Below are positions 15,999-62,114 of a stretch of DNA of 64,000 bases, piece after piece. The DNA comes from a virus. The notes under the pieces were generated by a model that was not told the origin of the DNA, did no database searches, and worked only from the letters and a program-made list of their open reading frames with translations. Location of the stretch: IMG/VR virus record IMGVR_UViG_3300023116_008583, positions 26,192-90,191 of that record, one strand, 5' to 3'. Every line of letters begins with the position of its first letter. Positions within the stretch are counted from its first letter, which is position 1. A program made the translations under genes and the position numbers.

Positions 15999-17879
15999 AT
16001 GGGTGGTATTGCATTTAAAGATAGTCAAGGAAGCTCATTAGCAAGCGGAGTTGAAAGACAATATGTGAAAGACACACTCGATGATCTCTTCACAAACCAC
16101 TTAAAAGATGCAGGAATTTCAGGATACGAGCCGGTTGGCTCTACGGGAAAGAAATCTATCGCTGGGGATCTTGATATCGCAGTTCAACCTGAACAGGAAG
16201 ATGTCAAACTAGCAAAAACTCAGATCTATAGAAATCTTGTTGGTTCGTTAGGCGCTGATAGAGTAAAGGTGATCGGTCCCAACCTCACAGTTTTATATCC
16301 AATAAAAGGTGATCCAGAAGAGCGAGATGCTCAGGTCGACTTAATGATTGCGCCAGATCTTGAGAGCGCAGGGTGGTTGATGGCAGGTGTCGGGGACGAA
16401 GGCATCAAAGGCATTTTTAGAAACGTGATGCTTGGGCATATTGCTGCAGAGAGAAGCAAAGAGCTTGGAACTCATGAGAAGTTAACTGTCGCCACCCCCG
16501 GCGGACTAGGCAGACTTTCTCTTGATCCTGCTCTTGATCCTGAGTTACCAAAAAACAAGCGAAAGTTTAAGCTAGTAGGCCCGAGAATCACTAGCCCGCA
16601 AGCAATATTGGACGGTTTAGGCATTCCAAGCAATCCATCAGAGACTGCAAGTTTTGAAGGACTGGTAAATGTTATGACTAAAGATCCTGAGTTAAAACAA
16701 ATGCTTTCGACGTTTAAAGATTATTTATCACAAAGAGTGACTAATGCACAACACCCACAATTTCAAAGAGTGCTAAGTCACGTGGAGTCAGTTATGAGTG
16801 AAGCTATGATTAGAAGTGCAGTGAGAAAGATGCTAGAAATGAAGCAGAATCAACTGCAGGAAAAGATTGTAAAGATAGGTGAGGATGAGCTTTACGATCT
16901 CACAGATGATAACCTCGAAGCTCTGAGATCATTTATACGATCCGAGCTCGGTGTAAGCGAATACGATCCTGACGCATCACGTCAGTCTTACATTGATTCG
17001 ATTGACGCAGTGAGAGGTGACACTCAATTTTCTGATGCTATGGCAGGCTACCCTGATGAGTACAAAAAACTTGTTTTGGATTATCTCATGTCTGCTGAAG
17101 AAGGACCAGATGAGATTGGTCCAATGCTATTTTCTCTCTCTGCAGGCAATTCATCCCTAGTAGATATCCCAGATCAGCTTTTAGATATTCTTCACTATAA
17201 TGAAGGGCAAGGGCTTGGGCGAGGAGAGCTTTTAACTCCACTTCTTTACGACAAGTCTTCTTGGGTTGGCGGTGCATCCGCTACACACGACGTAGATATC
17301 GGAGATCAAGCCTGGGAAATTAAGCATCACAGGTCTTTCAACGAACCTTTCGTTTTCGGTGGCGGTGCAAAGTCTTTCTTTAGATCGCCTAATAATCTCG
17401 CTTCAGCAATTAAAGCTGCTGGGTACGATATAGACCAGTTGCAAACAATGGGTAGAGACGAAAGCTTAAAGGCGATTGAGGACATTGTCACTAACTACAA
17501 GCCAGAGATTGACGGTAAGGTTATAGACTCTTCTGCAAAGATGCTTCACTTGCTTGATCAAATTGCTAGAGAGCACGTTCTACCCAAGGGAGAGGCAGGC
17601 GTTCTTTTATATCAGTCTAAGTCCGCTGCTGGATCACCTGCAAAAACTAGATTTGTTGACAAGGATGATCTTTACTTCTACGCTTTCGGTGGAAGAAAGA
17701 CCGGTAGATATCTTCTATACGCACCTGAATCACCATCCCCCAGTCGAGAATCTATGGCACCTCCCGTTGTTGACGAAGAAGAACCAGCACAACCTGAAGA
17801 GGCTGAGCAGTCAGAAGAAAATCTGAATGAGTCAGCGCAAAATCGATGGCAGCTAATAGCGGGTATCAAAGATGTCTAA
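15999..17879 (+). CDS. Pol-beta-type nucleotidyltransferase fused to a PD-(D/E)xK-like nuclease
   Basis: GSTGKK...GDLDIAV...QVDLM; C-terminal half GRGE...HDVDI...WEIK. Confidence 0.65.
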   Translation: MGGIAFKDSQGSSLASGVERQYVKDTLDDLFTNHLKDAGISGYEPVGSTGKKSIAGDLDIAVQPEQEDVKLAKTQIYRNLVGSLGADRVKVIGPNLTVLYPIKGDPEERDAQVDLMIAPDLESAGWLMAGVGDEGIKGIFRNVMLGHIAAERSKELGTHEKLTVATPGGLGRLSLDPALDPELPKNKRKFKLVGPRITSPQAILDGLGIPSNPSETASFEGLVNVMTKDPELKQMLSTFKDYLSQRVTNAQHPQFQRVLSHVESVMSEAMIRSAVRKMLEMKQNQLQEKIVKIGEDELYDLTDDNLEALRSFIRSELGVSEYDPDASRQSYIDSIDAVRGDTQFSDAMAGYPDEYKKLVLDYLMSAEEGPDEIGPMLFSLSAGNSSLVDIPDQLLDILHYNEGQGLGRGELLTPLLYDKSSWVGGASATHDVDIGDQAWEIKHHRSFNEPFVFGGGAKSFFRSPNNLASAIKAAGYDIDQLQTMGRDESLKAIEDIVTNYKPEIDGKVIDSSAKMLHLLDQIAREHVLPKGEAGVLLYQSKSAAGSPAKTRFVDKDDLYFYAFGGRKTGRYLLYAPESPSPSRESMAPPVVDEEEPAQPEEAEQSEENLNESAQNRWQLIAGIKDV

Positions 17880-18468
17880 TATGAAGGTCTTGATGGAAGG
17901 GTGGAGAACCTTTCTAAATGAGCAAGACGACGATCAGGGGCATTATTATCATTTATCACCTGTGAAATTTGAACAGTTCGCCCAGCAACTCAAACCTGCC
18001 CACATAGCGTCAGAGCCTGGATTTCACTTTGGAACCAAAAAGACTGCGCTAATAGTCGCAGACAAGCTCAAGAAAGAGGGCAGAGTAAAACCAGGTGACG
18101 TGGTTTATCTTTATAAAGTAAGCCTTAACATGACTAGCCCACTAAAGATGCTTGAGAATAGAATGGGATCTTGGGGTGTTGCATCTATTGTTAACGAGAT
18201 GTTTGAGGGAGAAACTTCATTTTCACCGTCTGATGAACAAATTGATGATTTCTATGAAGATGTAGTCACAACACCTTCAGGCGAGAACTTAAAAGATTTA
18301 ATGTTCGAACCCGCTATAGAAGTAAAAGAATTCATTAGCTGGTTTAACGATCAAGGCTATGATTCAATCGAATATGATAACACATTTGAAGGTGGAGGAA
18401 CATCTTACATTGTGTTTAAGCCTGAACAAATCTCCATCGTTGATGTTGAAGAGTACGAAGTTTCTTAA
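17872..18468 (+). CDS. ADP-ribosyltransferase-like protein (ART-PolyVal type)
   Basis: YYH...F..F...GFHFG...GYDSIEY.N..E...SYIVFKPEQI. Confidence 0.65.
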   Translation: MSNMKVLMEGWRTFLNEQDDDQGHYYHLSPVKFEQFAQQLKPAHIASEPGFHFGTKKTALIVADKLKKEGRVKPGDVVYLYKVSLNMTSPLKMLENRMGSWGVASIVNEMFEGETSFSPSDEQIDDFYEDVVTTPSGENLKDLMFEPAIEVKEFISWFNDQGYDSIEYDNTFEGGGTSYIVFKPEQISIVDVEEYEVS

Positions 18469-18536
18469 TTTAAACATAATAAAAGAATAAAAAAACCTCG
18501 AATGTGTTATAATCATTTATATCACATGGAGAAATA

Positions 18537-61127: not shown

Positions 61128-61134
61128 ATACTTA
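61128..61134 (+). promoter_or_regulatory. putative late-promoter motif ATACTTA
   Basis: Intergenic, AAGGAG RBS downstream. Confidence 0.6.
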
Positions 61135-61157
61135 TAGTCAGCATAAGGAGTGCAACT

Positions 61158-62114
61158 ATGTCTACATTTGACCGCTGGAATAAGATGGCAGGACTTCTCA
61201 ATGAGTCTGCTGAACCACAACAAACTGTTGAAGCTGAGGAAACACAGACTTCTACGATGAACGAGTCTGATCTCCGCGGGATGATCGCAGAACTCGCGAA
61301 GGGGATGCTGAGCGAAGGAATGCTTGACTTCATCAAGAAGGGCGACAGCATGGGTGCTGTATTCGACCCTGCAGCGCTCTGGTCTCCTGTTAAGCAAATG
61401 CAGTGGGGACTCGGTCTCCTGGGGTACCTTGATGCTGATAGCTTTAGAGACATTGACGGCAAGTTTGGCCCAAAGACAAAAAAGGCGGTTGAAAGATTCC
61501 AGAAGCAGATGGGGCTGAAACCTGACGGTGTTTGGGGCCCTAAAACAAACGCAGCTTTCGTGAAAGCTGTGAAAGGTCAAATCGATGCCGGGATGGATAA
61601 TCCACGATTCGGTACAATTACGGATCCTTCTCCGGGGCCTTCAAACTTGGGTACAGTAAATGCTACAAAACAGTGGCTTGAATCATGGTTGGAACACAGC
61701 GACCTTGACGGAAAAGTTCTTCGCATGGGTCGCACGAGAAACAAAAGAGCTCCTGCTGCACCCAAAGCTCCTGAAGCTCCAGCATCTGATATGACAGTTG
61801 CTGCAGCAGACGAAGATGACTTCTTTGATTTCTTGAAAGATCTCCCAGAAGATCCTTCTTTTGAAGAGATTGCTGCAGCTCGAGGTGCGGCCGCAGCAAA
61901 AGCACTTATTGGTGAGCCAGCACCTGGTGATGAGCCAGAAGATTCAGATGTAACTCTTCCAGGTATGCCAGACGTTTTCGCTCGTGGACTTAAGTTTACC
62001 AATGTTTACGGTGAAAAAGTTTTGGATATTTCAAGAGATGATTACGAAAAAGCAGGCATCTCCAAGGCCGATCTGGCAAGAGCGAATAACGTAGACAAGG
62101 TGATGATCTCTTAA
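61158..62114 (+). CDS. peptidoglycan-binding domain protein with N-terminal tags
   Basis: DGKFGPKT..AV..FQ...GL..DG..GPKT; RWNKMAGLLNES. Confidence 0.75.
   Translation: MSTFDRWNKMAGLLNESAEPQQTVEAEETQTSTMNESDLRGMIAELAKGMLSEGMLDFIKKGDSMGAVFDPAALWSPVKQMQWGLGLLGYLDADSFRDIDGKFGPKTKKAVERFQKQMGLKPDGVWGPKTNAAFVKAVKGQIDAGMDNPRFGTITDPSPGPSNLGTVNATKQWLESWLEHSDLDGKVLRMGRTRNKRAPAAPKAPEAPASDMTVAAADEDDFFDFLKDLPEDPSFEEIAAARGAAAAKALIGEPAPGDEPEDSDVTLPGMPDVFARGLKFTNVYGEKVLDISRDDYEKAGISKADLARANNVDKVMIS

Follow-up and report, generated by a model that had tools for sequence, protein, structure and literature searches.

Why should a dozen otherwise unrelated proteins of one uncultured phage begin or end with the same few short peptides? 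The question is raised by a 64,000-nucleotide stretch of viral DNA, bases 26192-90191 of IMG/VR record IMGVR_UViG_3300023116_008583, called the window below, in which terminal tags of three classes (A, B, and C) are found next to a site of the form h-x-E (h, hydrophobic residue; x, any residue; E, glutamate). A preliminary description of the window had proposed that these tags form a modular tag-and-cleave code that loads diverse proteins into the phage head. From the comparisons reported here we give a probability of roughly 70% to a related reading, in which the tags are prohead-targeting propeptides of a T4-type targeting-and-cleavage system and mimic peptides found at the ends of the scaffold and core proteins of the phage itself.

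Terminal tags and their cut sites

Terminal tags were found on 12 otherwise unrelated proteins of the window (Table 1), named here by the first position of their genes; in the peptides given below, a slash marks the putative cut and "-stop" the end of the protein. All peptides listed in the preliminary description were present at the genes for which they had been named, and three gene starts were corrected: the gene called 34196 starts at ATG 34235, the gene called 29975 probably starts at ATG 29987, and the open reading frame (ORF) called 23070 probably starts near 23127-23136, which reveals an additional tag, LLTKERLFQIVEEE. An h-x-E site lies between the tag and the body in 12/12 of the tagged proteins, at whichever end the tag stands. 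It comes after the N-terminal tags, including the N-terminal copy of tag B in 61158, and before the C-terminal B tail in 8/9 cargo proteins. Directly after the tags, the sequence h-N-E-[SQ] recurs (LNES, INEQ, LNEQ, MNES).

Tag A has the form hRxhhRxxh...hxE and belongs to a very common N-terminal tag of IMG/VR sequences, MKITKxQLKQIIKEEL..hxE (the MKIT tag). The general form of tag B is h-x-E, 0-4 residues, and RWQ(K/R)LAG(I/L)(I/L)K-stop, with the core RWxxLAGh. The preliminary description had listed tag B at the C-terminus of 15999 and in 61158 and 34235; in the latter two it stands at the N-terminus (followed by LNE/S), and the wider comparison refines it to a generally C-terminal peptide. 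All eight of its regex matches stood at the extreme C-terminus (3/3 in contigs with MKIT tags and 5/5 in five large genomes), and the reversed control pattern had 0 matches versus 5 real ones in the five large genomes. The tail of 15999 is invariant among orthologues, and the acidic linker before it differs by a 16-residue indel. Tag C reads MEGWRTFLNE in this phage and MENWRKFLKE in the wider family; the MKIT-tag contigs carry it as MK(L/K)L(M/L)ENWR(K/E)(F/Y)L(K/N)E, and 15/24 regex matches stood at the extreme N-terminus. The leaders of 34235 and 61158 are composites, in which tag B, LNE/S, a spacer (acidic in 61158), the sequence NES (34235) or MNES (61158), and a tag A ending MIAE/G (34235) or MLSE/G (61158) follow one another.

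Among the MKIT-tag contigs, a tail of the form GW(K/R)TFL(E/D)QGG(W/L)GKRP.NDKR is conserved at C-termini in L122, L138, L140, L150, and L185 and may be a further class of terminal tag. A 265-aa protein encoded directly downstream of the capsid gene in the relative G008 (L243, 559-1356) bears two tags, an N-terminal A tag MKLTKSRLRELVVEEI and a C-terminal B tail IVE/RWQRLAGIVK-stop.

Tags match terminal peptides of head proteins

Relatives of the phage were retrieved from IMG/VR via the DnaE gene, and five were fetched, including G001, G003, and G005. G001 (78 kb) has 59 proteins in common with this phage (mean identity 74%), in an order that is kept in 49/58 steps, and the shared part opens exactly at the start of our contig. 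Upstream of it, G001 carries a T4-type head module of portal, protease, scaffold-like gene, and major capsid gene, in which the protease is a Peptidase_S77 (gp21-type) protein (E 4.7e-25) and the major capsid protein is Gp23 (E 1.3e-65). We infer the protease and capsid genes of this phage from this colinear relative. Peptidase_S77 and Gp23 were both present in 5/5 large tag-bearing contigs (190-309 kb), which had been picked by size alone. The nearest capsid relatives belong to an uncultured 484-kb phage, Flavobacterium phage immuto, Microcystis phage Mel-JY01, and Rhodothermus phage RM378. Judged by these relatives and by the head module of G001, the phage is a deep-branching, giant T4-like myovirus.

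The scaffold gene, which stands directly 5' of the capsid gene, encodes the C-terminus [DEN]RWAxLAG[LI]..K-stop in G006, G007, G008, G009, and G010. The scaffold of G001 ends in SLNE/SSESNRWALLAGINK-stop, comparable to LNE/SAQNRWQLIAGIKDV-stop at the end of 15999, and that of the cultured phage immuto in SE/QVSRWQKLAGIIK-stop, with the tail RWQKLAGIIK-stop; the immuto gene is mis-annotated as encoding a polymerase-like protein. On the sequence of these scaffold ends, tag B is the scaffold's own C-terminal tail in 7/7 related genomes, including the cultured immuto. The scaffold of HTVC008M, from a different T4-like clade, has no tag B, so the tail is not universal among marine T4-like phages. 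A co-fold of a capsid protein and the C-terminal 60 residues of the matching scaffold scored 0.01, a value that speaks neither for nor against docking.

Tag A, in turn, matches by sequence the N-terminus of a conserved, small head-module protein encoded next to the protease. This protein opens with ..LK.LVKECLVEIL.E/G or ..LKGLIKECLIEILTE/G in tag-bearing contigs and with MAKLTRTALKGLIKECLIEILTE/G in G001, and its helix recurs in the second halves of the leaders of 61158 (..LRGMIAELAKGMLSE/G) and 34235. The G010 scaffold contains EVREAVTKLLE/QDD, near the 27431 tag AVRELVKSLLE/QDV, and the capsid propeptide of relatives ends in ..LLRE/Q or ..VLRE/A.

The counterpart of tag C was found in T4 itself, where gp21 cuts after L/I-x-E and the internal proteins carry N-terminal capsid-targeting sequences (CTS) of 10-19 residues (PMC9026906; PMC3012670). 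The T4 CTS is MKTYQEFIAE (10.1101/2021.01.19.427310), and in the CTS of IPIII, targeting depends on residues 4 and 7 and processing on residues 8 and 10 (PMC9026906). The last ten residues of tag C have M, an aromatic residue, F, an aliphatic residue, and E at positions 1, 4, 7, 8, and 10, as the T4 CTS does, with W, F, L, and E at the four mutation-mapped positions (4, 7, 8, 10). This pattern is confined to tag C, and tags A and B do not follow it.

These correspondences also bear on a function of the tags unrelated to the capsid, such as oligomerisation, recognition by phage ClpB-, GroEL-, or DnaJ-like chaperones, regulated degradation, or membrane association. In its favour, the tags are amphipathic helices of a generic kind, chaperone-like proteins are encoded at 35422, 40525, and 45625 (by ORF reading alone), and stand-alone homologues of the nucleotidyltransferase (NTase) domain of 15999 have a C-terminal A-like helix that is part of the fold. 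However, a function of this kind leaves unexplained why tag B equals the scaffold tail in 7/7 genomes, why a counterpart of tag A is encoded beside the protease, why h-x-E stands on the body side of all window tags and of 8/9 C-terminal tails elsewhere, and why gp21 and Gp23 occur in every large tag-bearing contig examined (5/5). We consider it distinctly improbable.

Promoter classes of the tagged genes

The preliminary description had placed the tagged genes behind an ATAYTTA motif and the TATAAT class of replication genes outside the tag system, and the gene counts bear this out. ATAYTTA was found at most 80 nt upstream of 7/12 tagged genes compared to 5/101 untagged genes (Fisher P 1.3e-5); by transcription unit, the numbers were 11/12 and 25/101, and in TATAAT units a tag was found on 1/55 genes. 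The window has 25 matches to the motif, compared to 14.5 expected, and 19 of the 25 lie on the + strand. Its distance upstream of the ATG is 23-35 nt for 15999, 27431, 38047, 61158, and the 23127-23435 gene, and 53 and 76 nt for 34235 and 30834, respectively; the motif reads ATATTTA at 23102 (34 nt before the 23127-23435 gene), 27398, and 38024 (23 nt before 38047). DnaE and other replication or metabolic genes are preceded by GTGTAAAT..TATAAT. In G001, ATAYTTA was found upstream of the scaffold gene as well as of a number of genes for the tail and head, and the motif is a candidate late class.

The early-type promoters of the window (9480-9550, 31160-31210, 62120-62183, and others) share the element (T)GTGTAAAT approximately 17 nt before TATAAT, and the genome is a succession of alternating early and ATAYTTA units that resemble inserted islands. 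A membrane metalloprotease-like gene at 8228-9034 (start MITFILILLVLIGIHELGHL) has ATACTTA 14 nt upstream, which assigns it to the promoter class of the tagged genes, and carries no tag. Salt-marsh and sponge metatranscriptome libraries contain short contigs that match window positions 15000-34999 at 90-100% identity, and a 777-nt metatranscriptome contig spans 34215-34991 with zero differences; these contigs show no transcript ends, strand, or level, so they are uninformative on timing.

Spread and statistics of tag A

A regex made from the instances of the preliminary description matched 6/113 proteins of this genome within the first 25 residues, compared to 1.3 expected (P 2e-3), a figure that is circular by construction. 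Applied to G003 as an independent replicate, the regex matched eight N-termini versus 1.9 expected (P 8e-4); six of the eight belong to proteins without a counterpart in this phage, and the matches read MKITxxxLRQIIREEL..hxE. With the MKIT profile and a profile built on G003 alone, 57933, 30834, and one site in 15999 were the only ones clearly above reversed-sequence controls. The 57933 tag was the top match of the independent G003-derived profile (13.1 bits; best reversed sequence, 1.1), and 30834 scored 8.7 bits with the profile from G003 tags alone, while its G003 orthologue scored 11.1 bits with the MKIT profile. The latter profile gave 7.6 bits for the G001 and 16.2 bits for the G005 orthologue of 23127. 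The 24141 tag is kept in its G001, G005, and G003 orthologues, and the G003 orthologue of 29987 opens with a KTITTSKQLKDFL-type sequence.

More than 119 IMG/VR loci, often tandem arrays of small genes, matched a degenerate DNA pattern encoding K-I-T-x3-L-x2-I-I-x-E-E, with about three chance matches estimated. An ATG, which is outside the pattern, stood directly before it in 116/121 matches listed. Among 111 distinct MKIT-family tags, 78% have h-x-E within residues 16-30, compared to 24% in a control window, and the cut-site Glu peaks at position 21 or 22, followed by Ala, Gly, or Ser. The invariant tag residues are encoded by all synonymous codons (all six for Leu8), which points to selection on the peptide rather than on the DNA. 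The freely varying codons rule out that the tags are DNA-level recombination linkers. A literature search for MKIT-type strings (QIIKEE, QIIREE, MKITK, KITKSQL) yielded no relevant paper, and neither a tagged small protein nor the core protein of the head module had a tblastn match among cultured phages.

Several points weigh against the tags being prohead-targeting propeptides. The positions, conservation, and modularity of the tags, the orientation of the cut sites, the head-module counterparts, and the co-occurrence with gp21 and Gp23 were observed directly, and packaging, cleavage, and ejection are proposals from sequence alone. The preliminary description had advised looking for a gp21-like protease; it was located in G001 and in 5/5 large tag-bearing contigs, but a search of the 90-kb fragment (29% complete) for head genes and Peptidase_S77 found none, and protease, scaffold, and capsid genes are thus not on the contig. 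The capsid gene of G001 stands behind a CATAAAT-like motif, not ATAYTTA, and the late label of the ATAYTTA class is based on its position before structural genes in one relative (G001). Tag A is diverged in this genome, with weak instances notably in the superoxide dismutase (SOD) 23440 and in 38047, and most window tags score near background with the canonical MKIT profile. The h-x-E site is short and common, occurring in 24% of control windows. The internal copy described in 15999 (IRSAVRKMLE..LQE) is present, yet it is ambiguous as a tag, as it forms part of the long last helix of a confidently folded domain. Finally, an assumption-free, all-against-all ungapped comparison of N-terminal 35-mers with interior windows in this genome gave no excess, in an assay blunted by acidic low-complexity runs and paralogues.

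The negative outcome of the latter comparison, together with the weak instances and the circular regex statistic, would be expected if the likeness had been cherry-picked from helix-forming N-termini that are alike by composition only. This explanation is already very unlikely in view of the G003 replicate, the ATG placed before nearly all pattern matches, the empty reversed-pattern control, the variation of synonymous codons beneath invariant residues, and the near-invariance of the 61158 leader across mosaic homologues.

Table 1. Tagged proteins, tag-like peptides, and promoter-like motifs of the window
Feature	Position	Strand	Remarks
Two-domain protein	15999..17879	+	Predicted Pol-beta-fold nucleotidyltransferase (aa 1-~270) and PD-(D/E)XK-like domain
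15999 junction helix	16806-16862	+	Part of the last helix of domain 1, at the domain junction
15999 C-terminal tag B tail, LNE/SAQNRWQLIAGIKDV-stop	17820-17876	+	Invariant in orthologues
ART-PolyVal-like ADP-ribosyltransferase	17872..18468	+	Pfam PF18760 match slightly under the cut-off
17872 N-terminal tag C, MSNMKVLMEGWRTFLNE/Q	17872-17922	+	
Small protein	23127..23435	+	Start codon uncertain; A/MKIT-type tag LLTKERLFQIVEEE at 23127-23192
Fe/Mn superoxide dismutase	23440..24132	+	N-terminal extension ending SLNE/A, 23440-23520
Acidic protein	24141..24740	+	Tag A IRKIILEMAQTINE/Q at 24141-24197
528-aa protein	27431..29017	+	Fold unassigned; tag A KVTERAVRELVKSLLE/Q at 27431-27487
Acidic protein	29987..30613	+	Tag A LRSFLERIVE/T at 29987-30046
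107-aa protein	30834..31157	+	Tag A NLREIIRQEAKSLVE/T at 30834-30896
Glu/Met/His-rich protein	34235..34738	+	Composite 61-residue leader, 34235-34417
115-aa protein	38047..38394	+	Weak tag A LVRNIVRHEINE/Q at 38047-38091
HExxH zincin-like, PG_binding_1, and muramidase protein	56506..57936	+	Tag-like linker 56971-57009; no terminal tag
154-aa protein	57933..58397	+	Tag A KLRELIRE/T at 57933-57977
Peptidoglycan-binding, lysozyme-family protein	61158..62114	+	Composite 53-residue leader, 61158-61316
ATAYTTA promoter-like motifs of tagged genes	15973, 23102, 27398, 30758, 34182, 38024, 61128 (span 15973..61134)	+	

Tagged proteins and modularity of the tags

The predicted ADP-ribosyltransferase (ART) 17872 matched PF18760 with E 1.6e-6 and 29.3 bits, compared to a curated cut-off of 31.2; its homologues at 50-78% identity carry precomputed PF18760 assignments, and the His, Tyr, and Glu columns are invariant in the alignment. 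One ART body of this family was found behind C-type leaders, A-type leaders, other leaders, or none, which supports tags that are modular and interchangeable on one enzyme family. The SOD 23440 matched Sod_Fe_C (E 9e-17) and keeps the metal-ligand positions His, His, Asp, and His (H in NHY, H in LHELYF, D and H in DVWQHAYY). Its residue 41 aligns to chain residue 17 of the Aquifex FeSOD (PDB 1coj), which leaves an N-terminal extension of about 25-27 residues.

Leaders were better conserved than bodies in 34235, 61158, and 27431. The 53-residue leader of 61158, a protein with a PG_binding_1 domain (E 1.6e-15), is near-invariant in 17 homologues with mosaic bodies of 32-70% identity, and only the leader of 34235 aligns with the G003 orthologue (64% identity). 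The 27431 tag is a conserved start in 17 homologues with identity down to 30%; in the AF2 model (mean pLDDT 59.6), it forms a helix of its own (residues 7-19) ahead of a disordered stretch. For 27431, no PDB sequence match and no Foldseek match at E <= 0.001 were obtained, and a search for related loci with 27431 alone returned none. The body of 34235 (34418-34738) consists of Glu/Met/His-rich repeats (MEEGMH, MEEEEMMEEG) of a composition that looks metal-binding, and the G005 orthologue is much longer, with extra repeats.

Domain 1 of 15999 is, by its AF2 model (pLDDT 96.5), of the Pol-beta superfamily nucleotidyltransferase fold: Foldseek matched pol lambda/beta (probability 1.0, E 6e-6), and G47, S48, D57, D59, and D114 (GS...DxD...D) are invariant or nearly so. 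A phmmer search of 15999 against PDB gave nothing useful, and ESM Atlas returned unnamed viral clusters only. Both domains of 15999 also occur as stand-alone families, and the NTase domain is found inside proteins of 700-1500 aa as well. The stand-alone domain-2 proteins open with an A-type tag directly before the conserved (V/I)KIGD..YD, and another fusion, P0079, ends in the B tail of 15999 and has a pair of tag-like peptides at the junction, which makes junction tags in fusion proteins plausible at the level of sequence. The stretch between a conserved epimerase gene and an IMPDH-like gene is a variable island; where the window has the NTase fusion and the ART (15999-18468), G003 has seven different genes, four of them tagged (L101, 11292-17918).

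The muramidase 56506, which the preliminary description had counted among the tagged cargo, has no terminal tag and drops out of the set. The internal copy listed for it, in the tag-like linker, is ambiguous as a tag. The protein matched PG_binding_1 (E 2e-14) and Muramidase (24.7 bits, over the cut-off). Ahead of these domains, its N-terminal domain has the HExxH zincin motif HELVHAKQH, and in the relative G004 the C-terminal muramidase module is swapped for unrelated sequence.

The nature of the tagged proteins also bears on where they would act. They might enter the prohead core and act there only, as core or scaffold components or as assembly enzymes, to be degraded or expelled like gp22, gp67, and gp68 with no delivery to the next host. 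Scaffold and core proteins, which tags A and B copy, are for the most part cleaved and then expelled in T4 (PMC9026906); 24141, 29987, and 34235 are acidic, of low complexity, and scaffold-like; and the G001 scaffold has many h-x-E sites. A stay in the core alone nevertheless appears quite unlikely to us: the folded ART, the SOD with intact ligand positions, the NTase, and the lysozyme-like proteins have no obvious assembly role, and they have parallels in Alt of T4 and in the wall-degrading proteins that other phages eject.

The source fragment and its relatives

The IMG/VR record comprises 90,191 bp and is estimated to be 29% complete, which gives a phage genome of roughly 300 kb. Almost all genes of the window are on the + strand, and the 26 kb 5' of the window hold baseplate, tail-fibre, and replication genes. 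The sequencing runs that contain the phage suggest a marine or salt-marsh habitat. Megablast with 20 kb against cultured phages gave no match, and PHROGs assigned no family to ten head-module proteins of the relatives. The G001 assembly is rich in frameshifts, which split its capsid, scaffold, core-protein, DnaE, and ART genes, so its ORFs need to be read across frames. DnaE is split into three ORFs in 71%-identity relatives (L101 of G003, 2993-8166; L106-L107 of G002), with a 320-aa ORF between the halves that is possibly an intein or homing-endonuclease insertion. A tRNA-Ser gene (anticodon GGA) lies between gene runs at window positions 49697-49784.

A proposed loading mechanism and its parallels

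The mechanism that we propose for the prohead-targeting propeptides has four steps. Tagged and structural genes would be expressed together from the ATAYTTA-type promoter. Each product would dock by means of a short copy of a peptide from the end of a head-core protein of the phage: the N-terminus of the protease-adjacent protein for tag A, the scaffold tail for tag B, and the T4 CTS pattern M..[WY]..F[LI].E for tag C. Through these copies, the cargo would co-assemble with the scaffolding core inside the prohead. The gp21-type protease would then cut after h-x-E between tag and body and free the enzyme in the head, and fusion proteins may also be cut at junction tags. Finally, the cargo would leave with the DNA at infection, a step modelled solely on T4 Alt and the internal proteins; taken alone, ejection into the host has, by this analogy, a little under an even chance of being true. 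The tag-and-cleave loading code of the preliminary description draws circumstantial support, at the level of sequence, from the T4-type head genes of the lineage, the modularity of the tags, the L/I-x-E sites facing the body, and a promoter motif in common with the scaffold gene of G001, and it loses 56506 as a terminally tagged protein.

The closest known parallel is the CTS system of T4, in which the packaged ART Alt is trimmed at its N- and C-termini (PMC9026906; PMC3012670). Likewise, this lineage has Gp23 and Peptidase_S77, short terminal peptides on non-homologous proteins that end in aliphatic-x-Glu, and an ADP-ribosyltransferase among the predicted cargo. In contrast to T4, there are at least three tag classes here and composite leaders of 53-61 residues, and tag B, which usually stands at the C-terminus, has the sequence of the scaffold tail. 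The tagged genes form scattered islands with the candidate late promoter amid early operons, whereas T4 has one internal-protein locus, and the predicted cargo includes an SOD, an NTase-nuclease fusion, and peptidoglycan-binding proteins, known from sequence alone.

A second parallel is offered by the C-terminal targeting peptides of encapsulins, such as GGDLGIRK, GSLNIGSLK, and LTVGSLRR (PMC10960027). Like tag B (LAG[IL][IL]K-stop), they are C-terminal, comprise approximately 10 residues, and have aliphatic residues flanking Gly, followed by a terminal Lys or Arg; they load unrelated enzymes into an HK97-fold shell, which is the proposed parallel. Unlike tag B, they are not cleaved, while tag B doubles as the scaffold tail and has a protease site before it. 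The resemblance was noted by eye and is a lead only. We hold it unlikely that tag B is a capsid-docking peptide of the T4-like scaffold copied by cargo and perhaps evolutionarily continuous with the encapsulin peptides (LGIRK, IGSLK).

In the giant phages phiKZ, 201phi2-1, and SPN3US, a relative of gp21 (gp175/gp245, S/A-x-E) processes many of the head proteins after Glu, and a large bolus of ejection proteins lies in the giant capsid (PMC9026906). These phages differ in having no recognised shared linear targeting tag and in their preference for Ser/Ala at P3, which is aliphatic here, and this lineage has the canonical pair of Gp23 and S77.

The ART-PolyVal family has its source in the polyvalent proteins of phages and conjugative elements, reportedly described by Iyer, Burroughs and Aravind in 2017. 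Shared with them are the ART-PolyVal domain, the NTase domain inside proteins of 700-1500 aa, and the combination of zincin, peptidoglycan-binding, and muramidase domains in 56506. In this phage, by contrast, the modules are mostly separate genes with tags of their own, and tag-like peptides stand at the junctions of the few fusions, such as P0079.

If true, the targeting-and-cleavage reading of the tags would provide a sequence-only rule that lists the head-carried proteins of a large, abundant group of uncultured marine T4-like phages. Such proteins would probably reach the host before phage gene expression, and hundreds of "hypothetical" virome ORFs would become candidate host-takeover or anti-defence effectors. 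To our knowledge, the binding partner of the capsid-targeting sequence is still unsettled even in T4, and cargo that copies the terminal peptides of the scaffold would be a concrete, testable answer to what the CTS binds. A cultured bench system exists in Flavobacterium phage vB_FspM_immuto (MW353176), which has the scaffold tail and both N-terminal tag types, on a C-tag protein encoded at 125197-125424 and an A-tag protein at 81481-81900, and the tags would offer a natural means of loading foreign proteins into phage capsids. An SOD and a Pol-beta-type nucleotidyltransferase, if packaged, would be unusual virion cargo for a bacteriophage. Should the continuity of tag B with encapsulin peptides also hold, this would be a natural phage system that joins scaffold-capsid docking to encapsulin cargo loading, and tags A, B, and C would serve a large clade of marine T4-like phages as a portable loading code with release by a protease.

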